From NCBI RefSeq assembly GCF_030013595.1, contig NZ_CP122768.1: a stretch of DNA of 64,000 nucleotides; one strand, 5' to 3'. Positions 2,532 through 58,739 of this stretch are shown piece after piece. Each line of letters starts with the position of its first letter. The first letter of the stretch is position 1. The DNA is from Escherichia coli. GTDB taxonomy: Bacteria; Pseudomonadota; Gammaproteobacteria; Enterobacterales; Enterobacteriaceae. The position numbers and the translations under genes are program-made. The notes beneath the pieces are model-generated. The model was not told the origin of the DNA. It was given only the letters and a program-made list of their open reading frames with translations, and made no database searches.

Positions 2532-2546
2532 GGTAATGACTCCAAC

Positions 2547-3050: not shown

Positions 3051-3244
3051 CCGACGCCATTCATGGCCATATCAATGATTTTCTGGTGCGTACCGGGCTG
3101 AGAGGCGGCGTAAGTGAACTGTAGTTGCCATGTTTTACGGCAGTGAGAGCAGAGATAGCGCTGATGTCCGGCGGTGCTTTTGCCGTTACGCACCACCCCG
3201 TCAGTAGCTGAACAGGAGGGACAGCTGATAGAAACAGAAGCCAC
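2969..3244 (-). CDS. insA: IS1 InsA (zinc-finger transposition inhibitor)
   Basis: 91-aa [43 protein letters not shown]... Confidence 0.9.
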
Positions 3245-3299
3245 TGGAGCACCTCAAAAACACCATCATACACTAAATCAGTAAGTTGGCAGCATCACC

Positions 3300-3308
3300 A
3301 ATCATGTT
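3300..3308. repeat. IS1 target-site duplication, right copy (aatcatgtt)
   Basis: Identical 9-mer to 2523..2531. Confidence 0.85.
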
Positions 3309-3370
3309 ATTGATTTTACATAAATGCCGAAGTGTCTTTTCACCTTCGGCTTTTTTCAAGGCATAAGCAA

Positions 3371-4516: not shown

Positions 4517-4571
4517 ATGTAAGATGTGCTGGTAAATAGCTCCCACATTTGAATATTGTGGGAGCCGCTAT

Positions 4572-7500
4572 TTAGTCATTTTGTTGACAGAAAACAGCTA
4601 TCTCCTGGTCCAGCTCTGCAATGTGTTCTTTAACAGAGTTCAGCAGCTGAAGAATTTCAGGCTTACTGTCATCTGAAACAGGTGTTATTTCTAACTGATG
4701 GCTAATATTAATCAACTTTTGCAAATTCAGGATGTTAGCCGCACCGTGGATGCGATGAATACACTGATGGAAAGTTCTGTTGTCGCCAGCTTCTAGTGCA
4801 TGAAACGCAGCGGGTAGATCTTTATGCGTTTCATGCTGGAAAGTCATGAGAATCTCCTGCATCAGTTGTAGATCGTTCGCCGTATTATTTTTCAGGGCCT
4901 CGATATCAAGGTGGCGATACTGAGGTGCAATAGGCGCAACCTGGTGTAACTGACTTAAATGTGTTTTCAGTACATCCAGGGTCAACGGTTTGAACAAACA
5001 TAAGTTCATGCCGCAATTTAACCCTTTTTCACGTTCGTTAGCCTGTGCGTTGGCTGTAAGCCCCCAGATGGGTAAGGCCGAATTTTGCTCACGGAGTTTG
5101 CGAGTCAACTCAAAACCATCCATATTCGGCATATTAACGTCAGTAATAAGCAGATCATAATGTTGCATACTGACTTTGTGTAGCGCTTGCACACCATCAG
5201 TGGCTTCATCAACATCATATCCTAATAGATTTAGCTGGCGTTTGAGTAATAGCCTGTTGGTCGGATGATCATCCGCGATTAATATGCTCAACTTTTCAGG
5301 GAGTGTCATAGGTTGTTCTGCTTTTGCCTCGACAGTCGCCACTTGTTGGGTAATTTCTACCGGGATTGTGATCGTAAATGTCGTTCCTATGCCTGGATGA
5401 CTTTCTAATGACAAATCGCCCTGCATGTTTTTAATTAATTCTTTGCAGATCATTAAGCCTAAACCAGAACCTGTTTGCTGACGACCTGCACTTGTTTGGC
5501 TATAGCGTTTAAACAGTTGTTGTTGTTCTTCCTGCGATAATCCACTTCCAGAATCCATAATCGTCATTTTGATTACAGCGTGGTTGTCATCAATGTTAAC
5601 CAGGGAGGTCGTAATTTTTACTGCCCCCTCGGTGGTAAATTTGAGAGCATTGCTCAGTAAATTAGATAAGACCTGCTTAAACGCCTGAGGGTCGATCTTA
5701 ACCAGGTAATGTTCAGGAAACGTACTGCTGCAACTTAATGCGATGGATTTGCTTGCAGCAATCGCACCGAAAGAGTGACAAGTGTTCTGGACTAAAGTAG
5801 GGATATCGACCCATTGTGGTTGAAGTTGATAGTTACCCGACTCAATTTTGTCGACATCAAGGATTTCACCAATTAAGCCGAGGAGTGATTGTCCGGTGGC
5901 GTAGGCAAGTGAAATCGCCTCCACCCGTTGTTCCTTGCTAAGACCAGAACCCGACAGAAGTTCCAGGAAGCCCATAATGGAGCTTATTGGTGTTCTTATT
6001 TCGTGACTCATTGTTGCCAGAAACTGACTTTTTGCGACAGTTGCATTGATCGCTTTATTTCTCTCTACTTCGAGAGCGTGAATTAAATCACGTGTCTCGG
6101 TAATATCTTGCCAACCACAAATATAAACAGCATGATCGCTGGCTGGCAGATTGCATAATGTATGCCAGTGATTAATGCATCTTTTCTCGATGCCATTATC
6201 AATTTCAAATACCTGTGTGTATATTGTTCGATTTTCTTTCGTTTCTGCTGTGACTTCATGCGCATTAGAAAAAACATCTTTAAAGGGTGAGTCACTGTTT
6301 TCTAATGGTAACATTGCATTTTTGTAGTAATCCGCAGTGAAATAATGTTCAAAAGCACTATTATGACTAATGACATTACCTTGCCAGTTTACAACATAAG
6401 TTGGATTCGGTAAGGAATCCGAGAGTGCTTTTCGGAATGATATTTGGTTTTCTAAATCACCCTGAATGACTTTACGACGACGAACTGAGCGTAACAGGTA
6501 GAATCCCCATAAAAGGCTACTGCCAACTAATAAAACGGATAATGTCGTGACAATATAAAATTGCTCGCTATAGAGGTCCCATGTGTCAATGGTCACATTG
6601 GGCATTTTAATCCATTTTTCCGTCAGGCGCAGAACTTCGCTTGGGGGAATTGCATTCAGAGCTTTATTAATAATATCCTTAAGTTCCGGTTCTCCGCGAG
6701 GAAAAGCGAACGAAAGCGATGCATTCTGAACGCCGGGAATAAGAAAATGATAAAGTTCATTAGGATAGTAATGGTCGATCATGTAACGCGAATTTAGCTG
6801 TGTCGCGACCAGAGCATCAAGTTCACCTTCCTTGACCTTGTGAAATGCAGCGCTGGCGTTATCGACTTTTATCCACTCTACCTCCGGATACATCTCTTTT
6901 AATTGCGAATGCAGCTCATAATAATATGGAATGGCAACTTTCATTCCTTTTTTTAATGTTTGTTCACTGTCAGGCGCTTTTTGCATGACAAAAACGTAAG
7001 GCGTTGTTATGAAGGCTTCAGCAAATAAAACATTATTTTCTCTATCTTCACTATAAATAGCACCGGGTAATATATCCCATCCGCCGGGATTCAGCTGTGT
7101 TCCAGCATGGATATTGTGTGAAACGGTGATCGGAGAAAAATTTAAACCTGTTTGCAAGGTAATAATATTAAGAATATCCCCCATAACGCCCCGAACCGAG
7201 CCATTTTCATCCGTCATAGAATAGGGAGGGGAGTAAGGATTTTCCAACACCTTTAAATCGGGATGCTGCTTAATCCACTGTTTTTCATGTTCAGTGAGTT
7301 CTAATGGTTTGTTCAGAAAGGCCAGGTTTCCTGTATCAAGCCAATTTTGTGATACTTCATAGCGAACTTCGTTTGTCAAAGCATCAACAAATCGATTGAG
7401 TACTTCATTAAGAACGACAGATTCTTTTCTGGTCAAGAAAAAATTATATTGACGCGGTGAGTTATAATATTTCACTACATTTAAGGAGTGAGTGAAATAG

Positions 7501-8165
7501 CGGGAAATCATACTGCTGGTAATAATGTTACTACCAATAAAGTAATCATTCTGTCCGGCTGAGACGGATGCTAATGCCTGATATAAATTTGTAAAAGAGA
7601 TAATTGTTGCTTTTGGAAATGATTGATGAATTACCTCATCTGGAGGGTAATTTGCTACCCGAGCAATATTTACTGGTTTTGATGAGGTAAGCGGTCTCAT
7701 TGAATCGTGAAGGGTGGTGACCAGCGCCGGAAAGGTAATTATCAGCGGTTTGGTTGCAGCAATGTCATCATTAAGAGGCGGCGAAGCAACTAAATGTGAT
7801 AACACTATATCGACTTCCCCTTCTGTAAGCGCGTCCATTGCTTTTTGATGATCTGCGTATTCCCGGAGTGTTAATTTGATATTTAACGCTCTTTTTAAAA
7901 GATTTAAATAATCAGCATTAATACCACGAACCCGTTGCTGCGAATCGGTACGCAACAAAGTAGCCGTTTGGGACTTGTGTACTGCAATCACAAGATTTTT
8001 TTTGCTCGCTAACCAACGTAATTCCTTGTTGCTCAGACGTAGTGGATCAAGCGTGACACGGTTGTTACTACTGATGCCACGATATTCGATGTAATCTTCG
8101 TCTGCGAAACTTATAGTCGACCAAAGACCACAACAGAGAAGAATAATATAGGGTAAAAACTTCAT
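4572..8165 (-). CDS. evgS: Hybrid sensor histidine kinase EvgS (periplasmic solute-binding-like domains, HisKA/HATPase, receiver, HPt)
   Basis: 1197-aa ORF with SHEIRTP H-box, receiver domain and C-terminal HPt; immediately downstream of evgA. Confidence 0.9.
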   Translation of the reverse strand: MKFLPYIILLCCGLWSTISFADEDYIEYRGISSNNRVTLDPLRLSNKELRWLASKKNLVIAVHKSQTATLLRTDSQQRVRGINADYLNLLKRALNIKLTLREYADHQKAMDALTEGEVDIVLSHLVASPPLNDDIAATKPLIITFPALVTTLHDSMRPLTSSKPVNIARVANYPPDEVIHQSFPKATIISFTNLYQALASVSAGQNDYFIGSNIITSSMISRYFTHSLNVVKYYNSPRQYNFFLTRKESVVLNEVLNRFVDALTNEVRYEVSQNWLDTGNLAFLNKPLELTEHEKQWIKQHPDLKVLENPYSPPYSMTDENGSVRGVMGDILNIITLQTGLNFSPITVSHNIHAGTQLNPGGWDILPGAIYSEDRENNVLFAEAFITTPYVFVMQKAPDSEQTLKKGMKVAIPYYYELHSQLKEMYPEVEWIKVDNASAAFHKVKEGELDALVATQLNSRYMIDHYYPNELYHFLIPGVQNASLSFAFPRGEPELKDIINKALNAIPPSEVLRLTEKWIKMPNVTIDTWDLYSEQFYIVTTLSVLLVGSSLLWGFYLLRSVRRRKVIQGDLENQISFRKALSDSLPNPTYVVNWQGNVISHNSAFEHYFTADYYKNAMLPLENSDSPFKDVFSNAHEVTAETKENRTIYTQVFEIDNGIEKRCINHWHTLCNLPASDHAVYICGWQDITETRDLIHALEVERNKAINATVAKSQFLATMSHEIRTPISSIMGFLELLSGSGLSKEQRVEAISLAYATGQSLLGLIGEILDVDKIESGNYQLQPQWVDIPTLVQNTCHSFGAIAASKSIALSCSSTFPEHYLVKIDPQAFKQVLSNLLSNALKFTTEGAVKITTSLVNIDDNHAVIKMTIMDSGSGLSQEEQQQLFKRYSQTSAGRQQTGSGLGLMICKELIKNMQGDLSLESHPGIGTTFTITIPVEITQQVATVEAKAEQPMTLPEKLSILIADDHPTNRLLLKRQLNLLGYDVDEATDGVQALHKVSMQHYDLLITDVNMPNMDGFELTRKLREQNSALPIWGLTANAQANEREKGLNCGMNLCLFKPLTLDVLKTHLSQLHQVAPIAPQYRHLDIEALKNNTANDLQLMQEILMTFQHETHKDLPAAFHALEAGDNRTFHQCIHRIHGAANILNLQKLINISHQLEITPVSDDSKPEILQLLNSVKEHIAELDQEIAVFCQQND

Positions 8166-8169
8166 GTGG

Positions 8170-8784
8170 TTAGCCGATTTTGTTACGTTGTGCGAATGTG
8201 TAAAGATCCATCAGTGATTTACATTCTAATTTTTCCATCAGGCGACTTTTATAAGTGCTGACAGTTTTGTTGCTGATGAACATTTTTTCCGCAATGTCAT
8301 TATTATCCTTGCCATCAAGAATATATCGCATGACACTAATTTCTTGTTTCGATAAGGAGTCGAGTTTTTGCTGGTCGGACGTTAAACTTCCAACAAACCG
8401 GTTGAGAGAGAAGGGGAAATAGCAGTAGCCATTTTTTGCAGCTTCAATAGCCGCAATGATATTGTTCATGCCTTCTTTTTTACTCACGAATCCATTAGCG
8501 CCAGCATCAGCACAATGTTTCCCGTAAAAATGGTCATTTTTAGCGGAGACGATAATAATAATTCCGCTATATTGGCGCTTCCTCAGCGTTTCTAACACCT
8601 GGATACCGTTAACTCCGGGGATATCGACATCAATGATGACGATATCAGGTTTAAGTGTTTCCACCCGCTGAACGGCACTTCCCCCTTCAGTCAACTCCGC
8701 TAAGATTTCAATATCGTTTTTGATCAATAAATTACGAATTGCTGCGATAGCAAGAGGATGGTCATCAATAATTATTGCGTTCAT
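8170..8784 (-). CDS. evgA: Response regulator EvgA (receiver + LuxR-type HTH)
   Basis: 204-aa ORF MNAIIIDDHPLAIAAIRNLL...; operon with evgS. Confidence 0.9.
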   Translation of the reverse strand: MNAIIIDDHPLAIAAIRNLLIKNDIEILAELTEGGSAVQRVETLKPDIVIIDVDIPGVNGIQVLETLRKRQYSGIIIIVSAKNDHFYGKHCADAGANGFVSKKEGMNNIIAAIEAAKNGYCYFPFSLNRFVGSLTSDQQKLDSLSKQEISVMRYILDGKDNNDIAEKMFISNKTVSTYKSRLMEKLECKSLMDLYTFAQRNKIG

Positions 8785-9008
8785 AGATTATTCCCTTGGC
8801 AATGAAGCATCTCCCTTCTCCCTGTAGTAATACAGACATAAGGCATCATCTCATTTTCTCAATAAAAATAAGAAAATTTGAGCTTCCTTTAAGATAATTC
8901 GACAAGTATACCATATAAATAGTCGGCATAAATGAAATGTCAACAATAAAATCAGGGATTGTACCGATGATTTATAGTTTCACATTAGCACTATAAGTCT
9001 TCTCACTA

Positions 9009-9026
9009 ATCCTACATGCGTAAGAA
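9009..9026. promoter_or_regulatory. Candidate EvgA box (ATCCTACA-TG-CGTAAGAA imperfect inverted repeat) in evgA-emrK divergent region
   Basis: Near-match to the recalled EvgA consensus TTCPyTACA...TGTAPuGAA; sits in the divergent promoter region. Confidence 0.35.
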
Positions 9027-9199
9027 TTGTATTGCAAAAGCTACGGTTTAGTCCTCTGTTGTTTTTTTTGCACCTCATTTAAATTAGGCCTCCAACGTTC
9101 CTGGGACAATGTGCAACACATGCACTGTGTTTGATATGAAGAATGAATACTCTTTTCATTCAATTCATAAATTTCATCTATGCGAAATGAGAGATAATA

Positions 9200-10363
9200 G
9201 TGGAACAGATTAATTCAAATAAAAAACATTCTAACAGAAGAAAATACTTTTCTTTATTGGCGGTAGTTTTATTTATTGCGTTTTCAGGTGCCTATGCCTA
9301 TTGGTCAATGGAATTAGAAGACATGATTAGTACAGATGATGCCTATGTCACGGGGAATGCAGATCCAATTTCTGCACAAGTTTCAGGCAGCGTCACTGTC
9401 GTTAATCATAAAGATACGAACTACGTTCGACAGGGTGACATTTTAGTCTCACTGGATAAGACTGATGCCACTATCGCACTCAATAAAGCTAAAAATAATC
9501 TGGCAAATATTGTTCGGCAAACGAATAAACTGTACTTACAGGATAAACAATACAGTGCCGAAGTCGCTTCAGCACGTATTCAGTATCAACAATCTTTAGA
9601 AGATTATAACCGTCGTGTGCCTTTAGCGAAGCAGGGGGTTATTTCAAAAGAAACGCTGGAGCATACCAAAGATACGTTAATAAGTAGCAAAGCGGCATTG
9701 AATGCCGCTATCCAGGCTTATAAAGCGAATAAAGCTTTAGTAATGAACACACCATTAAACCGTCAGCCACAAGTCGTTGAAGCTGCGGATGCAACCAAAG
9801 AAGCCTGGTTGGCGCTTAAACGTACGGATATTAAGAGTCCGGTTACCGGCTATATTGCCCAGCGAAGTGTTCAGGTCGGCGAAACAGTGAGTCCCGGACA
9901 ATCGTTAATGGCTGTCGTACCGGCACGTCAAATGTGGGTTAATGCTAACTTTAAAGAAACACAACTCACGGATGTACGGATTGGTCAATCGGTCAATATT
10001 ATCAGCGATCTTTATGGTGAAAATGTTGTGTTTCATGGTCGGGTGACAGGGATCAATATGGGAACCGGCAATGCGTTCTCCTTATTACCTGCACAAAATG
10101 CGACAGGGAACTGGATCAAAATCGTTCAGCGTGTACCGGTTGAAGTTTCTCTTGATCCAAAAGAACTCATGGAACATCCCTTACGTATTGGTTTATCGAT
10201 GACAGCAACTATTGATACGAAGAACGAAGACATTGCCGAGATGCCTGAGCTGGCTTCAACCGTGACGTCCATGCCTGCTTATACCAGTAAGGCTTTAGTT
10301 ATCGATACCAGTCCGATAGAAAAAGAAATTAGCAACATTATTTCGCATAATGGACAACTTTAA
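9200..10363 (+). CDS. emrK: Multidrug efflux membrane-fusion protein EmrK (EmrA family)
   Basis: 387-aa ORF with N-terminal membrane anchor and HlyD-like coiled coil; overlaps emrY start. Confidence 0.85.
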   Translation: MEQINSNKKHSNRRKYFSLLAVVLFIAFSGAYAYWSMELEDMISTDDAYVTGNADPISAQVSGSVTVVNHKDTNYVRQGDILVSLDKTDATIALNKAKNNLANIVRQTNKLYLQDKQYSAEVASARIQYQQSLEDYNRRVPLAKQGVISKETLEHTKDTLISSKAALNAAIQAYKANKALVMNTPLNRQPQVVEAADATKEAWLALKRTDIKSPVTGYIAQRSVQVGETVSPGQSLMAVVPARQMWVNANFKETQLTDVRIGQSVNIISDLYGENVVFHGRVTGINMGTGNAFSLLPAQNATGNWIKIVQRVPVEVSLDPKELMEHPLRIGLSMTATIDTKNEDIAEMPELASTVTSMPAYTSKALVIDTSPIEKEISNIISHNGQL

Positions 10364-11901
10364 TGGCAATCACTAAATCAACTCCGGCACCATTAACCGG
10401 TGGGACGTTATGGTGCGTCACTATTGCATTGTCATTAGCGACGTTTATGCAAATGTTGGATTCCACTATTTCTAACGTCGCAATACCGACAATATCTGGC
10501 TTTCTGGGAGCATCAACAGACGAAGGCACCTGGGTTATCACTTCGTTTGGCGTAGCAAATGCCATTGCGATCCCTGTTACCGGCAGGCTGGCACAAAGAA
10601 TAGGCGAATTAAGATTATTTTTACTTTCAGTCACTTTTTTTTCGCTGTCTTCCTTAATGTGTAGCCTATCGACCAATCTTGATGTGCTGATATTTTTTAG
10701 AGTCGTTCAGGGGTTAATGGCGGGGCCGTTAATTCCACTGTCACAGAGTTTATTATTAAGGAATTATCCGCCAGAAAAAAGAACATTTGCTTTGGCATTA
10801 TGGTCAATGACCGTAATTATCGCTCCGATATGTGGGCCGATATTGGGCGGCTATATTTGCGATAACTTTAGCTGGGGTTGGATATTTTTAATCAATGTCC
10901 CTATGGGGATTATCGTCCTGACATTATGCTTAACCTTACTTAAAGGAAGAGAAACTGAGACTTCACCGGTCAAAATGAATCTACCAGGACTGACCCTGTT
11001 AGTGCTCGGTGTTGGTGGCTTGCAAATTATGCTCGATAAAGGGCGCGATCTGGATTGGTTCAACTCGAGTACAATAATAATACTAACAGTAGTGTCAGTT
11101 ATTTCTCTGATCTCTTTAGTCATTTGGGAGTCGACCTCAGAGAATCCGATTCTTGACCTCAGTTTGTTTAAGTCCCGTAATTTCACCATTGGTATTGTGA
11201 GTATCACATGCGCGTATTTATTTTACTCTGGGGCAATAGTCCTTATGCCGCAATTACTCCAGGAAACGATGGGGTATAATGCGATATGGGCCGGACTTGC
11301 CTATGCGCCCATCGGCATCATGCCGCTATTAATATCACCTTTGATAGGACGTTATGGCAACAAAATTGATATGCGGTTATTGGTGACATTTAGTTTTTTA
11401 ATGTATGCGGTTTGCTATTACTGGCGTTCTGTGACATTTATGCCAACGATTGATTTTACAGGCATCATTTTGCCACAGTTTTTCCAGGGATTCGCCGTTG
11501 CCTGTTTCTTTTTACCCTTAACAACGATTTCGTTTTCAGGGTTGCCAGATAATAAATTTGCCAATGCCTCGAGTATGAGTAATTTTTTTCGTACCTTGTC
11601 AGGATCAGTTGGTACGTCGTTGACAATGACGCTGTGGGGACGACGCGAATCGTTACACCATAGTCAGTTGACAGCAACCATCGATCAATTTAACCCCGCG
11701 TTTAATTCATCGTCACAAATTATGGATAAATACTATGGTTCGCTTTCAGGAGTTCTTAATGAAATTAATAGTGAAATAACCCAGCAGTCACTTTCTATTT
11801 CTGCAAATGAGATTTTCCGTATGGCGGCTATTGCTTTTATCTTACTTACGGTTTTGGTTTGGTTTGCGAAACCGCCGTTTACAGCGAAAGGCGTTGGGTG
11901 A
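10363..11901 (+). CDS. emrY: MFS multidrug efflux pump EmrY (EmrB family, 14 TMS)
   Basis: 512-aa polytopic membrane ORF; synteny evgAS-emrKY. Confidence 0.9.
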   Translation: MAITKSTPAPLTGGTLWCVTIALSLATFMQMLDSTISNVAIPTISGFLGASTDEGTWVITSFGVANAIAIPVTGRLAQRIGELRLFLLSVTFFSLSSLMCSLSTNLDVLIFFRVVQGLMAGPLIPLSQSLLLRNYPPEKRTFALALWSMTVIIAPICGPILGGYICDNFSWGWIFLINVPMGIIVLTLCLTLLKGRETETSPVKMNLPGLTLLVLGVGGLQIMLDKGRDLDWFNSSTIIILTVVSVISLISLVIWESTSENPILDLSLFKSRNFTIGIVSITCAYLFYSGAIVLMPQLLQETMGYNAIWAGLAYAPIGIMPLLISPLIGRYGNKIDMRLLVTFSFLMYAVCYYWRSVTFMPTIDFTGIILPQFFQGFAVACFFLPLTTISFSGLPDNKFANASSMSNFFRTLSGSVGTSLTMTLWGRRESLHHSQLTATIDQFNPAFNSSSQIMDKYYGSLSGVLNEINSEITQQSLSISANEIFRMAAIAFILLTVLVWFAKPPFTAKGVG

Positions 11902-12008
11902 TGGTAAAAGCAGGGGGTTATAGCGGGTAAGACCGGGGATCTTAAGTCTGCGCCATCGGCAGCATCGCTCACCCAGGGAAAGGATGGCGATGCTGCATTG
12001 AAAATTAA

Positions 12009-13337
12009 TTAGCGGCCTTTTGCCAGATATTGCTCCATCTCTTCTTCCGGCACCATTCCACCTCCCGTCGCCCACACCAGATGAGTGGCATTACGCAGTT
12101 GTTCTGCGCTGAAACCGTGCATCTGTTGGTAACTTACTGATGCGCACACGCGCTGAGGCCCGGCCATACCCGCCAGTGCCGAAGGTTCAAGACGAATACC
12201 TTCTTCCTGCGCCAGCCAGCCAAGCATGTCATACATGGTTTGATCGCTAAGGGTATAGAAGCCATCCAGTAGACGCTCCATTGCCCGCCCGACAAAGCCT
12301 GATGCGCGACCAACTGCAAGGCCATCCGCTGCGGTAAGGTTGTCGATACCAATATCCTGAACAGAAATCTGATCGTGTAATCCTGTATGGACGCCTAACA
12401 GCATACAAGGGGAGTGCGTTGGTTCGGCAAAAAAGCAGTGAACATGATCGCCAAATGCCAGTTTAAGCCCGAATGCGACGCCACCAGGACCACCGCCAAC
12501 ACCACACGGCAGATAGACAAACAGAGGGTTATCAGCATCGACAATACGACCTTGCTCGGCAAATTGCGCTTTAAGACGCTGGCCTGCGACGGAATACCCA
12601 AGGAACAACGTGCGGGAATTCTCGTCATCAATAAAGAAACAGTTCGGGTCAGACTGCGCTGCTTTACGTCCTTCCTCGACTGCAACACCATAATCTTGCT
12701 CATATTCCACGACCGTAACGCCATGGCTGCGCAGTTTCGCTTTTTTCCATGCCCGGGCATCAGAAGACATATGTACTGTCACCTTAAAGCCAATGCGGGC
12801 GCTCATAATGCCGATTGATAACCCCAGATTTCCGGTTGAGCCCACAGCAATGCTGTATTGGCTAAAGAACTGTTTAAACTCCGGAGAAAGCAGTTTGCTG
12901 TAGTCATCTTCAGGCGTCAGCAACCCCGCTTCCAGAGCCAGTTTTTCTGCATGTGCCAGGACTTCATAAATCCCGCCGCGTGCTTTTATGGAGCCGGAAA
13001 TGGGCAAATGGCTATCTTTTTTCAGTAGCAGTTGCCCGCTGATCGGTTGTTGATATTCCTTTTCCAGCCGTTTTTGCATAGCCGGAATGGCAACCAGTTC
13101 TGATTCAATAATCCCCCCAGTCGCAGCAGTTTCAGGAAATGCTTTTGCCAGATAGGGTGCAAAACGGGATAAGCGCGCATGGGCGTCCTGAACATCCTGT
13201 TCGGTCAGGCCAACATAAGGTAAACCTTCAGCCAATGAGGTCGTGCCAGGATTAAACCAGGTGGTTTCTTTAAGAGCAACCAGATCCTTTACCAACGGAT
13301 ACTGGGCGATGAGCGAGTTCATTTTAGCGTTTTCCAT
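12009..13337 (-). CDS. dsdA: D-serine ammonia-lyase (D-serine dehydratase, PLP-dependent)
   Basis: 442-aa [34 protein letters not shown]... with PLP-lysine motif SGSIKARGG. Confidence 0.9.
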
Positions 13338-13354
13338 AGTACGTCTCTTTGCGC

Positions 13355-13573
13355 TTAGATGATAAATGACAGCAGGAATGTGCCCGCCAGAGCGACGACT
13401 GAAGCGATAAATGTCGCGGTCGTATAGTATTTAAATGTTTCATTGAGCGTAGCGCCGCAATATTGCTTCACCAGCCAGAAAAGCGAGTCCGTAACGATCG
13501 TGCAGCCAATCGCACCTGAACCGATAGCAATCGCAATAATTTCCGGGCTGATGTCGGGATACAGCGGCAGCAC
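13355..13573 (-). pseudogene. dsdX: 3' remnant of D-serine permease gene dsdX (GntP family), truncated by the csc island
   Basis: 72-aa hydrophobic ORF immediately upstream of dsdA with no full-length permease; csc genes begin ~240 bp further on. Confidence 0.55.
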
Positions 13574-13815
13574 AATGATCCATATTTATATTTTCTTCTC
13601 CAGATTGGCGATGCCAGTTGGCATGTTTTACCTACTTGTCTACATGGTTACTCGTTGGCGAGAACAGAGGCGGAATTGGGTACAATTGTCCGGGAATTAT
13701 TGTTATTTTTTATTGTATTGCCGTGTCGGGTGATAGGGCGTCGAGAATATCGTTGGATCTCGCCAGTGACGTCTGTTTCTGCTACAGTGCCCGTTTTACG
13801 GCAAACGGCTTGGGT

Positions 13816-14811
13816 ATGGCTTCATTAAAGGATGTCGCACGCCTGGCGGGAGTGTCGATGATGACAGTCTCCCGGGTGATGCATAATGCAGAATCTGTGC
13901 GTCCTGCAACGCGTAACCGCGTATTGCAGGCAATCCAGACCCTGAATTATGTTCCTGATCTTTCCGCCCGTAAGATGCGCGCTCAAGGACGTAAGCCGTC
14001 GACTCTCGCCGTGCTGGCGCAGGACACGGCCACCACTCCTTTCTCTGTTGATATTCTGCTTGCCATTGAGCAAACCGCCAGCGAGTTTGGCTGGAATAGT
14101 TTTTTAATCAATATTTTTTCTGAAGATGACGCTGCCCGCGCGGCACGTCAGCTGCTTGCCCACCGTCCGGATGGCATTATCTATACTACAATGGGGCTGC
14201 GACATATCACGCTGCCTGAGTCTCTGTATGGTGAAAATATTGTATTGGCGAACTGTGTGGCGGATGACCCAGCGTTACCCAGTTATATCCCTGATGATTA
14301 CACTGCACAATATGAATCAACACAGCATTTGCTCGCGGCGGGCTATCGTCAACCGTTATGCTTCTGGCTACCGGAAAGTGCGTTGGCAACAGGGTATCGT
14401 CGGCAGGGATTTGAGCAGGCCTGGCGTGATGCTGGACGAGATCTGGCTGAGGTGAAACAATTTCACATGGCAACAGGTGATGATCACTACACCGATCTCG
14501 CAAGTTTACTCAATGCCCACTTCAAATCGGGCAAACCAGATTTTGATGTTCTGATATGTGGTAACGATCGCGCAGCCTTTGTGGCTTATCAGGTTCTTTT
14601 GGCGAAGGGGGTACGTATCCCGAAGGATGTCGCCGTAATGGGCTTTGATAATCTGGTTGGCGTCGGGCATCTGTTTTTACCGCCGCTGACCACAATTCAG
14701 CTTCCACATGACATTATCGGGCGGGAAGCTGCATTGCATATTATTGAAGGTCGTGAAGGGGGAAGAGTGACGCGGATCCCTTGCCCGCTGTTGATCCGTT
14801 GTTCCACCTGA
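13816..14811 (+). CDS. cscR: LacI-family sucrose operon repressor CscR
   Basis: N-terminal HTH MASLKDVARLAGVSMMTVSRVMHN... plus periplasmic-binding-protein-like sugar-binding core; start set at internal ATG 13816. Confidence 0.8.
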   Translation: MASLKDVARLAGVSMMTVSRVMHNAESVRPATRNRVLQAIQTLNYVPDLSARKMRAQGRKPSTLAVLAQDTATTPFSVDILLAIEQTASEFGWNSFLINIFSEDDAARAARQLLAHRPDGIIYTTMGLRHITLPESLYGENIVLANCVADDPALPSYIPDDYTAQYESTQHLLAAGYRQPLCFWLPESALATGYRRQGFEQAWRDAGRDLAEVKQFHMATGDDHYTDLASLLNAHFKSGKPDFDVLICGNDRAAFVAYQVLLAKGVRIPKDVAVMGFDNLVGVGHLFLPPLTTIQLPHDIIGREAALHIIEGREGGRVTRIPCPLLIRCST

Positions 14812-14818
14812 TATTATG

Positions 14819-16252
14819 TTAACCCAGTTGCCAGAGTGCTCCATGTTGCAGCACAGCCACTCCGTGGGAGGCATAGAGCGACAGTTCCCGTTCTTCTGGC
14901 TGCGGATATATTCGGCTACTCATCACCGCCTCCCCGTCGTTAATAAATACTTCCACGGATGATGTATCGATAAATATCCTTAGGGCGAGCATGTCACCCT
15001 GCGGGAGGGGAATACTACGGTAGCCATCTAAATTCTCGTGTGGGTAATACCGCCACAAAACAAGTCGCTCAGATTGGTTATCAATATACAGCCGCATTCC
15101 AGCGCCGAGCTGTAATCCGTAATGTTCGGCATCACTGTTCTTCAGCGCCCACTGCAACTGAATCTCAACTGCTTGCGCGTTTTCCTGCAAAACATATTTA
15201 TTGCTGATTGTGCGGGGAGAGATAGATTGATGCTGCTGGCGTAACGACTCAGCTTCGTGTACCGGGCGTTGTAGGAGTTTGCCATTGCTCTCTGATAGCT
15301 CGCGCGCCAGCGTCATGCAGCCTGCCCAGCCTTCACGTTTTGAGGGCATTGGCGATTCCCACATATCCATCCAGCCGATAACAATACGCCGACCATCCTT
15401 CGCTACAAAGCTTTGTGGTGCATAAAAGTCATGCCCGTTATCAAGTTCAGTAAAATGCCCGGATTGTGCAAAAAGTCGTCCTGGCGACCACATTCCGGGT
15501 ATTACGCCACTTTGAAAGCGATTTCGATAACTGTATCCCTCGGCATTCATTCCCTGCGGGGAAAACATCAGATAATGCTGATCGCCAAGGCTGAAAAAGT
15601 CCGGACATTCCCACATATAGCTTTCACCCGCATCAGCGTGGGCCAGTACGCGATCGAAAGTCCATTCACGCAATGAACTGCCGCGATAAAGCAGGATCTG
15701 CCCCGTGTTGCCTGGGTCTTTCGCCCCGACTACCATCCACCATGTGTCGGCTTCACGCCACACTTTAGGATCGCGGAAGTGCATGATGCCTTCTGGTGGA
15801 GTGAGGATCACACCCTGTTTCTCGAAATGAATACCATCCCGACTGGTAGCCAGACATTGTACTTCGCGAATTGCATCGTCATTACCTGCACCATCGAGCC
15901 AGACGTGTCCGGTGTAGATAAGTGAGAGGACACCATTGTCATCGACAGCACTACCTGAAAAACACCCGTCTTTGTCATTCTCGTCTCCTGGCGCTAGCGC
16001 AATAGGCTCATGCTGCCAGTGGATCATATCGTCGCTGGTGGCATGTCCCCAGTGCATTGGCCCCCAGTGTTCGCTCATCGGGTGATGTTGATAAAACGCG
16101 TGATAACGATCGTTAAACCAGATCAGGCCGTTTGGATCGTTCATCCACCCGGCAGGAGGCGCGAGGTGAAAATGGGGATAGAAAGTGTTACCTCGGCGCT
16201 CGTGAAGTTTTGCTAGTGCGTTTTGCGCCGCATGCAATCGAGATTGCGTCAT
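14819..16252 (-). CDS. cscA: Sucrose-6-phosphate hydrolase / invertase CscA (GH32)
   Basis: GH32 signature WMNDPNGL near N-terminus; ~477 aa. Confidence 0.85.
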   Translation of the reverse strand: MTQSRLHAAQNALAKLHERRGNTFYPHFHLAPPAGWMNDPNGLIWFNDRYHAFYQHHPMSEHWGPMHWGHATSDDMIHWQHEPIALAPGDENDKDGCFSGSAVDDNGVLSLIYTGHVWLDGAGNDDAIREVQCLATSRDGIHFEKQGVILTPPEGIMHFRDPKVWREADTWWMVVGAKDPGNTGQILLYRGSSLREWTFDRVLAHADAGESYMWECPDFFSLGDQHYLMFSPQGMNAEGYSYRNRFQSGVIPGMWSPGRLFAQSGHFTELDNGHDFYAPQSFVAKDGRRIVIGWMDMWESPMPSKREGWAGCMTLARELSESNGKLLQRPVHEAESLRQQHQSISPRTISNKYVLQENAQAVEIQLQWALKNSDAEHYGLQLGAGMRLYIDNQSERLVLWRYYPHENLDGYRSIPLPQGDMLALRIFIDTSSVEVFINDGEAVMSSRIYPQPEERELSLYASHGVAVLQHGALWQLG

Positions 16253-16285
16253 TTTAATCATCCTGGTTAAGCAAATTTGGTGAAT

Positions 16286-16298
16286 TGTTAACGTTAAC
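16286..16298. promoter_or_regulatory. Candidate CscR operator copy 1 (TGTTAACGTTAAC, palindromic core GTTAACGTTAAC)
   Basis: Perfect 12-bp palindrome, present twice in the cscA/cscKB divergent intergenic region. Confidence 0.45.
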
Positions 16299-16349
16299 TT
16301 TTATAAAAATAAAGTCCCTTACTTTCATAAATGCGATGAATATCACAAA

Positions 16350-16362
16350 TGTTAACGTTAAC
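16350..16362. promoter_or_regulatory. Candidate CscR operator copy 2 (TGTTAACGTTAAC)
   Basis: Identical 13-mer 64 bp from copy 1. Confidence 0.45.
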
Positions 16363-16467
16363 TATGACGTTTTGTGATCGAATATGCATGTTTTAGTAAA
16401 TCCATGACGATTTTGCGAAAAAGAGGTTTATCACTATGCGTAAGTCAGATGAATTTAAGGGAAAAAA

Positions 16468-17382
16468 ATGTCAGCCAAAGTATGGGTTTTAGGGGATGCG
16501 GTCGTAGATCTCTTGCCAGAATCAGACGGGCGGCTACTGCCTTGTCCTGGCGGCGCGCCAGCTAACGTTGCGGTGGGAATCGCCAGATTAGGCGGAACAA
16601 GTGGGTTTATAGGTCGGGTCGGTGATGATCCTTTTGGTGCGTTAATGCAAAGAACGCTGCTAACTGAGGGTGTCGATATCACGTATCTGAAGCAAGATGA
16701 ATGGCACCGGACATCCACGGTGCTTGTCGATCTGAATGATCAAGGAGAACGTTCATTTACGTTTATGGTCCGCCCCAGTGCCGATCTTTTTTTAGAGACG
16801 ACAGACTTGCCCTGCTGGCGACATGGCGAATGGTTACATCTCTGTTCAATTGCGTTGTCTGCCGAGCCTTCGCGTACCAGCGCATTTACTGCGATGACGG
16901 CGATCCGGCATGCCGGAGGTTTTGTCAGCTTCGATCCCAATATTCGTGAAGATCTATGGCAAGACGAGCATTTGCTCCGCTTGTGTTTGCGGCAGGCGCT
17001 ACAACTGGCGGATGTCGTCAAGCTCTCGGAAGAAGAATGGCGACTTATCAGTGGAAAAACACAGAACGATCGGGATATATGCGCGCTGGCAAAAGAGTAT
17101 GAGATCGCCATGCTGTTGGTGACTAAAGGTGCAGAAGGGGTGGTGGTCTGTTATCGAGGACAAGTTCACCATTTTGCTGGAATGTCTGTGAATTGTGTCG
17201 ATAGTACTGGGGCGGGAGATGCGTTCGTTGCCGGGTTACTCACAGGTCTGTCCTCTACGGGGTTATCTACAGATGAGAGAGAAATGCGACGAATTATTGA
17301 TCTTGCTCAACGTTGCGGAGCGCTTGCAGTAACGGCGAAAGGGGCGATGACAGCGCTGCCATGTCGACAAGAACTGGAATAG
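16468..17382 (+). CDS. cscK: Fructokinase CscK (PfkB/ribokinase family)
   Basis: 304-aa ORF MSAKVWVLGDAVVDLLPE... with C-terminal GAGDAF motif. Confidence 0.85.
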   Translation: MSAKVWVLGDAVVDLLPESDGRLLPCPGGAPANVAVGIARLGGTSGFIGRVGDDPFGALMQRTLLTEGVDITYLKQDEWHRTSTVLVDLNDQGERSFTFMVRPSADLFLETTDLPCWRHGEWLHLCSIALSAEPSRTSAFTAMTAIRHAGGFVSFDPNIREDLWQDEHLLRLCLRQALQLADVVKLSEEEWRLISGKTQNDRDICALAKEYEIAMLLVTKGAEGVVVCYRGQVHHFAGMSVNCVDSTGAGDAFVAGLLTGLSSTGLSTDEREMRRIIDLAQRCGALAVTAKGAMTALPCRQELE

Positions 17383-17453
17383 TGAGAATTAAACGGCGAA
17401 GTCGCTCTTATCTCTAAATAGGACGTGAATTTTTTAACGACAGGCAGGTAATT

Positions 17454-18701
17454 ATGGCACTGAATATTCCATTCAGAAATGCGTACTATCGTTTGGCATC
17501 CAGTTACTCATTTCTCTTTTTTATTTCCTGGTCGCTGTGGTGGTCGTTATACGCTATTTGGCTGAAAGGACATCTAGGATTAACAGGGACGGAATTAGGT
17601 ACACTTTATTCGGTCAACCAGTTTACCAGCATTCTATTTATGATGTTCTACGGCATCGTTCAGGATAAACTCGGTCTGAAGAAACCGCTCATCTGGTGTA
17701 TGAGTTTCATTCTGGTCTTGACCGGACCGTTTATGATTTACGTTTATGAACCGTTACTGCAAAGCAATTTTTCTGTAGGTCTAATTCTGGGGGCGCTCTT
17801 TTTTGGCCTGGGGTATCTGGCGGGATGCGGTTTGCTTGACAGCTTCACCGAAAAAATGGCGCGAAATTTTCATTTCGAATATGGAACAGCGCGCGCCTGG
17901 GGATCTTTTGGCTATGCTATTGGCGCGTTCTTTGCCGGTATATTTTTTAGTATCAGTCCCCATATCAACTTCTGGTTGGTCTCGCTATTTGGCGCTGTAT
18001 TTATGATGATCAACATGCGTTTTAAAGATAAGGATCACCAGTGCATAGCGGCGGATGCGGGAGGGGTAAAAAAAGAGGATTTTATCGCAGTTTTCAAGGA
18101 TCGAAACTTCTGGGTTTTCGTCATATTTATTGTGGGGACGTGGTCTTTCTATAACATTTTTGATCAACAACTCTTTCCTGTCTTTTATGCAGGTTTATTC
18201 GAATCACACGATGTAGGAACGCGCCTGTATGGTTATCTCAACTCATTCCAGGTGGTACTCGAAGCGCTGTGCATGGCGATTATTCCTTTCTTTGTGAATC
18301 GGGTAGGGCCAAAAAATGCATTACTTATCGGTGTTGTGATTATGGCGTTGCGTATCCTTTCCTGCGCGTTGTTCGTTAACCCCTGGATTATTTCATTAGT
18401 GAAGCTGTTACATGCCATTGAGGTTCCACTTTGTGTCATATCCGTCTTCAAATACAGCGTGGCAAACTTTGATAAGCGCCTGTCGTCGACGATCTTTCTG
18501 ATTGGTTTTCAAATTGCCAGTTCGCTTGGGATTGTGCTGCTTTCAACGCCGACTGGGATACTCTTTGACCACGCAGGCTACCAGACAGTTTTCTTCGCAA
18601 TTTCGGGTATTGTCTGCCTGATGTTGCTATTTGGCATTTTCTTCCTGAGTAAAAAACGCGAGCAAATAGTTATGGAAACGCCTGTACCTTCAGCAATATA
18701 G
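17454..18701 (+). CDS. cscB: Sucrose:H+ symporter CscB (LacY-like MFS)
   Basis: 415-aa 12-TMS ORF; downstream of cscK. Confidence 0.85.
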   Translation: MALNIPFRNAYYRLASSYSFLFFISWSLWWSLYAIWLKGHLGLTGTELGTLYSVNQFTSILFMMFYGIVQDKLGLKKPLIWCMSFILVLTGPFMIYVYEPLLQSNFSVGLILGALFFGLGYLAGCGLLDSFTEKMARNFHFEYGTARAWGSFGYAIGAFFAGIFFSISPHINFWLVSLFGAVFMMINMRFKDKDHQCIAADAGGVKKEDFIAVFKDRNFWVFVIFIVGTWSFYNIFDQQLFPVFYAGLFESHDVGTRLYGYLNSFQVVLEALCMAIIPFFVNRVGPKNALLIGVVIMALRILSCALFVNPWIISLVKLLHAIEVPLCVISVFKYSVANFDKRLSSTIFLIGFQIASSLGIVLLSTPTGILFDHAGYQTVFFAISGIVCLMLLFGIFFLSKKREQIVMETPVPSAI

Positions 18702-19142
18702 ACGTAAACTTTTTCCGGTTGTTGTCGATATCTCCATATCCCTCAACCGGAAAATAATAATACAAAAATGCTTAGCCCAACTAATAATCACCTAATCCAA
18801 ACGCCTCATTCATGTTCTGGTACAGTCGCTCAAATGTACTCCGGATACGCGGTTCGCTGATTTCCAGGACATTGTCGTCATTCAGCGACCTGTCCCGAGT
18901 ATCACGGGCCTGCGAATTCATCAAGGAATGCATTGCAGAGTGAAGTATCGAGTCACGCCATATTTCGCTATCAGGATTCTGTATGATGGTTACATCGCCC
19001 GGCCCAGGGCTGTTTAGTCATCAGCGCTTTCTGACAGTGCTGAGATTTCAACCTGTTGCAGTAAAAATGAGTAGATATAGGGCAAGTGTGCTGCCAAACC
19101 CATCTTTTACGGGGTGAAGGTAGATTTGGTTTGAAGGGTATC

Positions 19143-19157
19143 TGGTGTCCCCTGCAG
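19143..19157. repeat. Prophage attL core: 15-bp direct repeat of the argW 3' end (tggtgtcccctgcag)
   Basis: Exact 15-bp copy of the tRNA 3' terminus found at 58665..58679; phage genes lie between the two copies. Confidence 0.7.
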
Positions 19158-19230
19158 ACATCTACTTGAGGCGGCAGGGGATTGATTGGAATGGTGTTTT
19201 TTAGATGTGAAAAATATTTTACCCGCTATT

Positions 19231-19431
19231 TTACCCATTGGCGCGGCTTAAGAGCTTATTTTTGAATTCACAATGGTCACGATATAACCATCTTGCTCGC
19301 CCGTGGATAACTTTGGCTTTTGGCAGGTCGCCGGACTTAATCCGGTCATAGATGAAGGTTTTACCGAATCCAGTATCGGCCATGATGAATTTCAAATCAA
19401 CCAGTGAATCAGGCTGTAGTTCGTGTTGCAT
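19231..19431 (-). CDS. AlpA-family phage transcriptional regulator / putative excisionase
   Basis: 66-aa ORF with small HTH (…LKFIMADTGFGKTFIYDRIKSGDLPKAK…); adjacent to attL. Confidence 0.55.
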   Translation of the reverse strand: MQHELQPDSLVDLKFIMADTGFGKTFIYDRIKSGDLPKAKVIHGRARWLYRDHCEFKNKLLSRANG

Positions 19432-19473
19432 GAGTGCTATCTCCGAATAGGGAATCGAACCTGCAAATCAGGC

Positions 19474-19498
19474 AATAAAAAACCGCCATCAGGCGGCT
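19474..19498 (-). terminator. Rho-independent terminator (minus strand) between the zinc-ribbon gene and the AlpA-like gene
   Basis: GC hairpin aaccgcc/ggcgg followed by a T-run on the minus strand. Confidence 0.5.
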
Positions 19499-19562
19499 TG
19501 GTGTTCTTTCAGTTCTTCAATTCGAATATTGGTTACATTGTTTTAATATATGAATAAATAAA

Positions 19563-19775
19563 TTAGCTTTTTTCGTTGCCTTCGCGTTCTTTATTAATTT
19601 TAACAAACTCGTTTTTACCACGCTCTCCAAATGCGTCTTTAGAGTCGTTGTATCCGCAATCGCAGCACACATAATCACCAGACCATCCACGCATTGTTTT
19701 TTCTTTTGCAATATTTCCAGAACCGCATTTTGGACAAGACATATCACTACCTCCAAAGCATGAGTGAGATGACAA
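19563..19775 (-). CDS. Small zinc-ribbon protein (CPKC...CCDC)
   Basis: 70-aa ORF with two Cys pairs; the overlapping 126-aa ORF in another frame was judged less likely. Confidence 0.4.
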   Translation of the reverse strand: MSSHSCFGGSDMSCPKCGSGNIAKEKTMRGWSGDYVCCDCGYNDSKDAFGERGKNEFVKINKEREGNEKS

Positions 19776-19838
19776 CGTAACATTGATTGGAGATTAACAA
19801 TAGATTGCTGATGTAAAAGATATGTATAAGCTTCGCTT

Positions 19839-20393
19839 TCAAAGTGGAGGCTCTGGTAGCGGCATCCAGTGTGACGGCTCACATACCACCTCAACACCGT
19901 TCATGTAAAAGAATTGAAATAACCCTTTACCTTTGTGAAACCCTACCATCTGCTCTTTTGTGTCTGAACAATAAACCAAAACATCTTCTTCGTTTGGCAT
20001 CCACTCACTACAGCTTATCCAACCATCTGGAATTACCGGAGAGTTGCCCGACATCTCATTCAACTTGTAAGTCTGGCTTACAGGTTTGGCTTCCAGTTCT
20101 GCAATGCGCTTACCTCCATCCGCGATTACTCCCTCGTAATATTCACGCTGCTCGTTGAGTTTTGATTTTGCTTCCTCAAGCTCAACTCTCAGCTTCCCTA
20201 CCGTTAGCGCAATATCCTCGTTCTCCTGGTCACGGCGTTTGATGTATTGCTGGTTTCTTTCCCGTTCATCCAGCAGTTCCAGCACAATCGATGGTGTTAC
20301 CAATTCATGGAAAAGGTCTGCGTCAAATCCCCAGTCGTCATGCATTGCCTGCTCTGCCGCTTCACGCAGTGCCTGAGAGTTAATTTCGCTCAC
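19839..20393 (-). CDS. Prophage early protein, DUF551-like C-terminal domain
   Basis: 184 aa; C-terminal ...PDGWISCSEWMP...HWMPLPEPP resembles the DUF551 family common in lambdoid prophages (recalled). Confidence 0.45.
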   Translation of the reverse strand: MSEINSQALREAAEQAMHDDWGFDADLFHELVTPSIVLELLDERERNQQYIKRRDQENEDIALTVGKLRVELEEAKSKLNEQREYYEGVIADGGKRIAELEAKPVSQTYKLNEMSGNSPVIPDGWISCSEWMPNEEDVLVYCSDTKEQMVGFHKGKGLFQFFYMNGVEVVCEPSHWMPLPEPPL

Positions 20394-20611
20394 TTCGAAC
20401 CTCTCTGTTTACTGATAAGTTCCAGATCCTCCTGGCAACTTGCACAAGTCCGACAACCCTGAACGGCCAAGCGTCTTCGTTCATCTATCGGATCGCCACA
20501 CTCACAACAATGAGTGGCAGATATAGCCTGGTGGTTCAGGCGGCGCATTTTTATTGCTGTGTTGCGCTGTAATTCTTCAATTTCTGATGCTGAATCAATG
20601 ATGTCTGCCAT
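20390..20611 (-). CDS. TraR/DksA-family C4 zinc-finger protein
   Basis: 73 aa with CCECGDPI...CRTCASCQ four-Cys motif. Confidence 0.55.
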   Translation of the reverse strand: MADIIDSASEIEELQRNTAIKMRRLNHQAISATHCCECGDPIDERRRLAVQGCRTCASCQEDLELISKQRGSK

Positions 20612-20709
20612 CTTTCATTAATCCCTGAATTGTTGGTTAATACGCTTGAGGGTGAATGCGAATAATAAAAAAGGAGCCTGTAGCTCCATGATGATTTTGT
20701 TTTTCATGC

Positions 20710-20991
20710 TCACCGTTCCTTAAAGACGCCGTTTAACATGCCGATCGCCAGGCTTAAATGAGTCGGTGTGAATCCCATCAGCGTTACCGTTTCGCGGTGC
20801 TTCTTCAGTACGCTACGGCAAATGTCATCGACGTTTTTATCCGGAAACTGCTGTCTGGCTTTTTTGATTTCATAATTAGCCTGACGGGCAATACTGCGAA
20901 GGGCGTTTTCTTGCTGAGGTGTCATTGAACAAGTCCCATGTCGGCAAGCATAAGCACACAGAATATGAAGCCCGCTGCCAGAAAAATGCAT
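20710..20991 (-). CDS. Hypothetical early protein (start uncertain)
   Basis: ORF in the pL operon, co-oriented with its neighbours. Confidence 0.3.
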   Translation of the reverse strand: MHFSGSGLHILCAYACRHGTCSMTPQQENALRSIARQANYEIKKARQQFPDKNVDDICRSVLKKHRETVTLMGFTPTHLSLAIGMLNGVFKER

Positions 20992-21001
20992 TCAGTGGTT
21001 G

Positions 21002-21193
21002 TCATACCTGGTCTCTCTCATCTGCTTCTGCTTTCGCCACCATCATTTCCAGCTTTTGTGAAAGGGATGTGGCTAACGTATGAAATTCTTCGTCTGTTTC
21101 TACTGGTATTGGCACAAACCTGACTCCAATTTGAGCGAGGCTATGTGCCATCTCGATACTCGTTCTTAACTCAACGGGAGATGCTTTGTGCAT
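21002..21193 (-). CDS. Hypothetical early protein (63 aa), upstream of exo
   Basis: ORF co-oriented in the pL operon; no function assigned. Confidence 0.35.
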   Translation of the reverse strand: MHKASPVELRTSIEMAHSLAQIGVRFVPIPVETDEEFHTLATSLSQKLEMMVAKAEADERDQV

Positions 21194-21344
21194 ACAGCCC
21201 CCCGTTTATTATTTATCTCCTCAGCCAGCCGCTGGGCTTTCAGTGGATTTTGGATAACAGAAAGGCCGGGAAATACCCAGCCTCGCTTTGTAACGGAGTA
21301 GACGAAAGTGATCGCGCCTACCCGGATATTATCGTGAGGATGCG

Positions 21345-22025
21345 TCATCGCCATTGCTCCCCAAATACAAAACCAATTTCAGCCAGTGCCTCGTCCATTT
21401 TTTCGATGAACTCCGGCACCATCTCGTCAAAACTCGCCATGTACTTTTCATCCCGCTCAACCACGACATAATGCAGTCCTTCACGCTTCATACGCGGGTC
21501 ATAGTTGGCAAAGTACCAGGCATCTTTTCGCGTCACCCACATGCTGTACTGCACCTGGGCCATGTAAGCCGACTTTATGGCCTCGAAACCACCGAGCCGG
21601 AACTTCATGAAATCCCGGGAGGTAAACGGGCATTTCAGCTCAAGGCCATTGCCGTCACTGCATAAACCATCGGGAGAGCAGGCGGTGCGCATACTTTCGT
21701 CGCGATAGATGATCGGGGATTCAGTAACATTCACGCCGGAAGTGAATTCAAACAGGGTTCTGGCGTCGTTCTCGTACTGTTTTCCCCAGGCCAGCGCCTT
21801 AGCATTAACTTCCGGAGCCACACCGGTGCAAACCTCAGCCAGCAGGGTGTGGAAGTAGGACATTTTCATGTCAGGCCACTTCTTTCCTGAGCGGGGCTTT
21901 GCTATCACGTTGTGAACTTCTGAAGCGGTGATGACGCCGAGCCGTAATTTGTGCCACGCATCATCCCCCTGTTCGACAGCTCTCACGTCGATCCCGGTAC
22001 GCTGCAGGATAATGTCCGGTGTCAT
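21345..22025 (-). CDS. exo: Lambda-type exonuclease (Red-alpha)
   Basis: 226-aa [43 protein letters not shown]... essentially identical in character to lambda Exo. Confidence 0.9.
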
Positions 22026-23328: not shown

Positions 23329-23461
23329 TTTTTGGGACTCCTGGCTGATTAAGTATGTCGATAAGGCGTTTCCATCCGTCACGTAATTTACGGGTGATTC
23401 GTTCAAGTAAAGATTCGGAAGGGCAGCCAGCAACAGGCCACCCTGCAATGGCATATTGCAT
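23297..23461 (-). CDS. cIII: cIII (FtsH inhibitor), 54 aa; below the ORF-track length cutoff
   Basis: Manual translation of the minus strand: [54 protein letters not shown]. Confidence 0.7.
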   Translation of the reverse strand: MQYAIAGWPVAGCPSESLLERITRKLRDGWKRLIDILNQPGVPKNGSNTYGYPD

Positions 23462-23533
23462 GGTGTGCTCCTTATTTATACATAACGAAAAACGCCTCGA
23501 GTGAAGCGTTATTGGTATGCGGTAAAGCCGCGC

Positions 23534-33950: not shown

Positions 33951-34025
33951 GGGTCAGTCGTATAAAGGTCATTACGGAAGGCTGTTAACCTTCTTATCGT
34001 GGTTCGAGTCCACGCTGTCCCGCCA
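33951..34025 (+). tRNA. Candidate phage-encoded tRNA (anticodon GTT, Asn-like); atypical D-arm and one acceptor-stem mismatch
   Basis: Manual fold: acceptor GGGTCAG/CTGTCCC, anticodon stem GAAGG/CCTTC with loop CTGTTAA, T-arm CGTGG-TTCGAGT-CCACG, 3' GCCA. Confidence 0.45.
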
Positions 34026-34030
34026 AATAT

Positions 34031-52455: not shown

Positions 52456-52459
52456 CGAG

Positions 52460-58664: not shown

Positions 58665-58679
58665 TGGTGTCCCCTGCAG
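58665..58679. repeat. Prophage attR core: 15-bp direct repeat (tggtgtcccctgcag) within the argW 3' end
   Basis: Exact copy of 19143..19157. Confidence 0.7.
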
Positions 58680-58739
58680 GAATCGAACCTGCAATTAGCC
58701 CTTAGGAGGGGCTCGTTATATCCATTTAACTAAGAGGAC
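58665..58739 (-). tRNA. argW: tRNA-Arg (anticodon CCU), argW; prophage attR at its 3' end
   Basis: Reverse complement reads GTCCTCTTAGTTAAATGGATATAACGAGCCCCTCCTAAGGGCTAATTGCAGGTTCGATTCCTGCAGGGGACACCA. Confidence 0.9.

Follow-up and report, generated by a model that had tools for sequence, protein, structure and literature searches.

A csc sucrose island in place of dsdC and most of dsdX at the argW-dsd locus of an Escherichia coli chromosome

At the argW-dsd variable locus of E. coli, the window (the whole 64-kb stretch of DNA that was analysed) very probably holds the widespread csc-type allele, in which dsdA is silent and a csc regulon is present. The exchange of dsdCX for csc is a long-described, ordinary E. 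coli arrangement that is already known, and it has been on record in the literature since 1979-2006. A preliminary description of this DNA had proposed that dsdC and most of dsdX have given way to a csc island, and this structural reading was right, as dsdA is left without DsdC and without the DsdC-dependent dsdX promoter. For the window the practical gain is an accurate annotation. The strain falls in the csc-type half of E. coli, its dsdX remnant is a pseudogene, and dsdA is to be read as a silent gene that can be reactivated by deletion, not as a sign of D-serine catabolism.

Structure of the dsdA-csc segment

In the E. coli chromosome the locus forms part of evgS-evgA-emrK-emrY-dsdA ... 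argW-yfdC-mlaA. Junctions were determined by blastn and base-by-base comparison with an intact K-12-type locus (L002), and the features of the segment are as follows.

12009..13337, minus strand: dsdA, D-serine ammonia-lyase, 442 aa, intact, no internal stop
13355..13572, minus strand: dsdX remnant, the last 71 codons plus the stop codon (homology and base-by-base breakpoint)
13573..19142: the 5,570-bp csc sucrose island (from blastn comparison with L002)
13573..13815, plus strand: non-coding stretch from the breakpoint to cscR, presumed site of the cscR promoter; native dsdX promoter and DsdC site absent
13816..14811, plus strand: cscR, LacI-family sucrose repressor, 331 aa, intact (LacI helix-turn-helix and Peripla_BP_1, full length)
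14819..16252, minus strand: cscA, GH32 invertase/sucrose hydrolase, 477 aa, intact (Glyco_hydro_32N and 32C)
16283-16299 and 16347-16363: palindrome TGTTAACGTTAACT, twice, in the control region between the divergent cscA and cscK
16468..17382, plus strand: cscK, fructokinase, 304 aa, intact (PfkB domain)
17454..18701, plus strand: cscB, LacY-family sucrose:H+ symporter, 415 aa, intact (TIGR00882, 594 bits)
18781..18933, minus strand: DUF4942 gene remnant, 50 aa, at the argW-proximal end of the island (PF13708, positions 18-62 of 190, 26.1 bits)
19143..19157: 15-bp copy of the argW 3' end, TGGTGTCCCCTGCAG, the prophage attachment core, identical to 58665-58679
58665..58739, minus strand: argW, tRNA-Arg(CCT), anchor of the variable locus (tRNA scan)

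Homology to L002 extends from 3300 to 13572 and begins again at 19143, and the left breakpoint lies between 13572 and 13573, inside dsdX. The preliminary description had suggested defining the junction by alignment with an intact dsdCXA locus; that alignment places it at 13572/13573, and the interval singled out there (13338-13815) runs exactly from the dsdA start codon to the cscR start codon. Overall, 5,570 bp has come in and 2,368 bp of the K-12 arrangement has gone, the lost sequence comprising the first 1,119 bp (5' end) of dsdX, the intergenic control region between dsdX and dsdC, the dsdC gene itself and a further 95 bp downstream. This 2,368-bp K-12 segment (L002 16374-18741) had no meaningful DNA match in the 64-kb window, and a tblastn search of the window with DsdC gave zero matches, so that the absence of dsdC is borne out. 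Judged from the sequence, the functional dsdCXA operon is lost, the activator DsdC, the DsdC-dependent dsdXA promoter and a full-length DsdX all being missing from the window.

The dsdA reading frame is uninterrupted, as had been claimed, and its product aligns over 442 of 442 residues with the K-12-type DsdA at 98.6% identity (six substitutions relative to K-12). It matches the D-serine ammonia-lyase equivalog model TIGR02035 over its full length with 808 bits (cut-off 368), and Lys118, which we take to be the PLP-binding lysine, is kept in the motif SGSIKARGG. Separated from dsdA by 17 bases on its upstream side, an open reading frame of 72 aa on the minus strand (13355-13573) aligns to DsdX residues 374-445 only (of 445). 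Its score of 146 bits against the DsdX model (positions 374-445 of 445; cut-off 618) marks it as a fragment, not a full-length GntP-family permease, in agreement with the 72-aa C-terminal fragment noted earlier. Base 13573 is foreign, and the frame runs on to it as codon 374 has changed by chance from ATG to GTG; the remnant therefore consists of 71 true DsdX codons and one junction codon. The 72 residues of its product are all identical to those in O157:H7 and O158:H23 strains, and in related genomes the remnant is annotated by RefSeq as a pseudogene with a 'missing N-terminus'.

The four csc genes follow directly in the order cscR-cscA-cscK-cscB, as had been described, with the cscR start at 13816, 242 bp past the breakpoint, and all four are uninterrupted. 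Their products are full length and differ by 2-4 residues from the O157:H7 alleles. CscR contains no stops and shows 2-4 amino acid differences from the O158 and O157 alleles, and the name cscR is used in some RefSeq records. CscA scored 477 bits against TIGR01322 (cut-off 356) and CscK 508 bits against the fructokinase equivalog NF006957 (above its cut-off of 450), while CscB aligned to LacY_symp over positions 2-412 of 413 with 642 bits and has three differences from O157. Both TGTTAACGTTAACT palindromes are probably CscR operators, a putative assignment that presumes their equivalence to the published operators. No Rfam RNA family was found within the dsd/csc segment. A promoter scan of 11850-19200 returned 0 sigma-70-like sites against 9.9 expected from shuffled sequences and was too crude to be interpreted.

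The right edge of the island coincides with the argW attachment core. In the window argW is set apart from the island by a 39.5-kb P22-like prophage, and in a prophage-free relative (L001) the csc island directly adjoins argW. A search for terminal repeats, direct or inverted, and for IS ends found none flanking the csc segment, and the DUF4942 remnant, which is also annotated in related genomes and by its position is presumably z3622 of EDL933, is the sole relic of mobility within it. The alignment at the left breakpoint, made against the intact K-12-type locus, showed no obvious shared bases. The few genomes with a match that starts 40 bp further in, M1/5 among them, were considered as possible csc loci in a pre-deletion context; they were rejected because they carry the same dsdX remnant (219 nt in M1/5).

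Sucrose and D-serine phenotypes

The family assignments, read together with the literature, suggest that CscB would import sucrose, CscA would split it and CscK would phosphorylate the fructose, and that CscR would repress the divergent cscA and cscKB promoters except when sucrose is fairly plentiful. A sucrose-positive phenotype is the weaker half of the prediction made in the preliminary description; it is likely but not assured, because csc-only strains often grow slowly, very slowly or not at all. It is conceivable, if on balance unlikely, that the csc genes are intact and yet phenotypically cryptic owing to CscR repression and weak induction, in which case the strain would be sucrose-negative or very slow and the D-serine half of the prediction would hold. 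In minimal medium with sucrose, csc-only isolates of phylogroups D, B1 and E showed slow, very slow or no growth (Stephens et al. 2024, PMC11251922, Table 1), several of the poorly growing isolates having no identifiable lesion (PMC11251922). In E. coli W, efficient sucrose use was seen only above 1% (PMC3938415), and with cscR intact repression is expected here. However, all four genes of the window are full length and within 2-4 residues of their O157:H7 counterparts, wild-type EHEC can live on sucrose as its only carbon source (O'Boyle et al. 2020, PMC7486766), and the cscA-cscK control region here contains no IS element, unlike that of the closest relative, HCP5S3_I2. Growth on sucrose therefore remains the likely outcome.

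The predicted D-serine non-use or sensitivity is supported by its agreement with published experiments on other strains with the same junction. In the unrearranged csc-type locus the intact dsdA frame would be essentially silent because DsdC and the DsdC-dependent dsdXA promoter have been lost; D-serine would continue to be imported via CycA and SstT, accumulate and inhibit growth. It would not be deaminated or serve as a carbon or nitrogen source, and it would be bacteriostatic in minimal medium, as shown for EHEC with the same junction. In EDL933 the dsdCXA locus is truncated, a sucrose locus substituting dsdC and part of dsdX at the argW hotspot (Connolly et al. 2015, PMC4366372); that paper cites Jahreis 2002 and Moritz & Welch 2006 for this substitution and credits the first observation to Alaeddinoglu & Charles 1979. 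EHEC and EPEC grew on D-serine only when dsdA was given in trans (PMC4366372), and EHEC EDL933/TUV93-0 did not grow on D-serine, was inhibited by it and grew on sucrose (PMC4366372; PMC7486766). O'Boyle et al. 2020 (PMC7486766) report dsdA to be silent and the growth rate of EHEC to fall from 0.63 to 0.19 per hour under D-serine; spontaneous deletions removing cscR allowed read-through from the cscA promoter into dsdA, with D-serine catabolism restored and growth on sucrose lost. The same paper gives CycA and SstT as the D-serine uptake routes, transporter loss also conferring tolerance. E. coli W carries the same insertion, grows on sucrose and has lost D-serine use (Archer et al. 2011, PMC3032704). 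Among gut isolates D-serine use follows the dsd allele (PMC13054288), and such isolates have been typed across the csc junction by a triplex PCR whose primers sit in dsdA, cscR and dsdX (2026, PMC13054288).

Silence of dsdA would not be complete if sucrose, by relieving CscR, allowed transcripts from the cscA promoter to extend, antisense to cscR, across the dsdX remnant and into dsdA. Such sucrose-induced read-through is conceivable because cscA and dsdA lie on the same strand and a simple scan found no convincing intrinsic terminator between them; the sole terminator-like site on the minus strand (13389-13370) lies within a part of dsdX that K-12 transcribes together with dsdA. Deletion of cscR alone led to dsdA expression and D-serine tolerance (PMC7486766), text searches of that paper showed no experiment in which sucrose was used to induce the unrearranged locus, and dsdA is still intact in all csc-type genomes examined. 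If true, the idea would explain this intactness and would mean that half of all E. coli have D-serine detoxification rewired to sucrose instead of D-serine. We nevertheless regard it as improbable: a reporter fragment running from the wild-type cscA promoter to dsdA gave 63-134 RFU as opposed to 2,001 for the deletion fragment (PMC7486766), the transcript would run against convergent transcription of cscR over about 1 kb, csc-type strains have been consistently D-serine-negative in phenotype surveys (PMC4366372, PMC13054288), and the low dN/dS of dsdA can be accounted for by divergence older than its linkage to csc (see below).

Distribution, origin and neighbouring elements

The frequency of the arrangement was surveyed in 5,426 complete E. 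coli genomes. A 751-bp query spanning the junction was at least 80% covered in 2,656 of the 5,426, about half, and carriers of the junction include O157:H7 strains and isolates from many hosts. Any match to the csc left end was found in 2,691 genomes, about 99% of csc loci having the same junction, and the non-coding stretch 13573..13815 is conserved together with the csc locus in these 2,691 genomes. The K-12 dsdCX segment was at least 80% covered in 2,698 genomes and matched in any part in 2,772, while the combined query (csc left end or dsdCX) was matched in 5,382 of the 5,426. The csc island and any dsdCX DNA therefore occur together in at most 81 genomes (2,691 + 2,772 - 5,382), or 3% of the 2,691 csc genomes, and part of the dsdCX matches in this overlap are 41-bp scraps. 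The csc and dsdCX alleles roughly halve the species and are nearly mutually exclusive. In the literature the alternative between them has been tied to niche choice (urinary tract versus gut), to LEE-dsdCXA incompatibility and to fitness in Crohn's disease, and it is used as a PCR marker.

These counts bear on whether a second, complete dsdCXA might lie outside the window, as in many K1, B2 and F strains. With such a copy the strain would be able to use D-serine despite the truncated locus of the window, and DsdC acting in trans would be irrelevant to the promoterless dsdA of the window. Genomes with two copies do exist, the dsdCX segment being found at 2,972 places in 2,772 genomes, with two dsdX-dsdA places each in IAI39 and one ST131 strain; NMEC CE10 is given with two dsdCXA copies (PMC7486766), and a few strains have both loci complete (PMC11251922). 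A second copy here is very improbable, however, because at most 81 of the 2,691 csc-bearing genomes (3%) hold any dsdCX DNA, some of it as the scraps noted above; moreover, all 28 csc-type genomes sampled had a single place, and strains with two copies are mostly of the dsdCXA type at argW. The idea that the junction is a chance feature or an artefact of assembly or chimerism is discarded, as the identical junction recurs in 2,656 genomes that were finished independently and the dsdX pseudogene is annotated by RefSeq in such genomes.

The comparison of five alleles and the counts above suggest that a single ancestral replacement occurred and was afterwards disseminated by homologous recombination via the conserved flanks, as the breakpoint is identical across phylogroups and csc has diverged less than dsdA. 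When the window is compared with M1/5 (phylogroup B2), the cscR region is 98.4% identical, as against about 94.6% for dsdA (72 differences). dsdA was intact in every csc-type genome examined, with a dN/dS of 0.04-0.1 (window against L001, L003, L004 and L005). This ratio was dropped as a test of selection after silencing: the much lower divergence of csc DNA than of dsdA between phylogroups indicates that the divergence of dsdA predates its linkage to csc.

The closest backbone was found in the UK pig isolates HCP5S3_I2 and LCP30S3_I5 (99.9% over 15.9 kb). In HCP5S3_I2 (L003, NZ_CM149870.1) an IS4 lies in the cscA-cscK control region (L003 5418-6755), and the LCP30S3_I5 match also shows IS4. 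At argW, HCP5S3_I2 carries a P4-like satellite element with a MazEF-type pair (L003 9685-21961), not a P22-like prophage, and its comparison with the window illustrates the fast turnover of the argW hotspot. The prophage of the window is P22-like (podovirus), spans 39.5 kb (19143-58664), is integrated in argW with the 15-bp attachment core at both ends, and contains the following recognisable features.

19231-19431, minus strand: TorI-like excisionase
23416-23474, minus strand: lambda CIII thermoregulator RNA
33951-34106: phage tRNA-Asn and tRNA-Thr
36610-36672: int-alpA RNA match
54347-55276: P22 antirepressor
55377-57272: tailspike with P22 head-binding domain
57349-58539, minus strand: integrase

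The prophage is a mosaic, the best phage record covering only 54% of its first 25 kb. A 3-kb query across the left prophage junction (18600-21600) was covered to more than 93% in no complete E. coli genome, and the window backbone together with the P22-like prophage was found in no complete genome. In the prophage region upstream of the antirepressor, an open reading frame with a SocA/Panacea antitoxin domain (52006-52455) overlaps a 164-aa frame that has no Pfam match (52385-52879), and this pair (52006-52879) may be a candidate Panacea-type toxin-antitoxin or defence pair.

Two further differences lie elsewhere in the window. A 768-bp IS1 copy (2532-3299), with inverted repeats GGTAATGACTCCAACTTACTGAT and GGTGATGCTGCCAACTTACTGAT and the 9-bp target duplication AATCATGTT, sits between yfdV, whose stop codon it follows by 2 bp, and the downstream yfdE in the EvgA-regulated yfdXWUVE acid-resistance cluster; it is missing from K-12 and from the O158:H23 relative. 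Downstream of mlaA (61668-62019), the counterpart of K-12 yfdF is divergent, with patchy 74-81% identity to the O158:H23 relative and an alignment to K-12 that is broken at 61822-61884.

Comparison with known systems

The nearest known type is that of O157:H7 EDL933/Sakai, E. coli W and EC3132, with which the window shares the dsdX breakpoint and its 219-nt remnant, the gene order and orientation cscR(+), cscA(-), cscK(+), cscB(+) between the dsdX remnant and argW, the dsdA-argW position and the DUF4942 remnant, the proteins being 2-4 residues apart. The differences from this type are only allelic or lie in neighbouring mobile elements (here the P22-like prophage in argW and the IS1 downstream of yfdV). 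The intact dsdCXA locus of K-12 and UPEC CFT073 occupies the same position (emrY - dsdA ... argW), encodes a DsdA 98.6% identical in protein and shares the last 72 dsdX codons, whereas the window has lost dsdC, residues 1-373 of DsdX and the promoter region between these two divergent genes, so that the inducible operon is gone. The PTS-dependent Scr system of Klebsiella and some B2 E. coli likewise provides for sucrose use with a GH32 hydrolase, a fructokinase and a LacI-type repressor (PMC11251922), but it relies on the PTS enzyme II ScrA and the porin ScrY and gives fast growth, whereas the transporter in the window is a LacY-family symporter.
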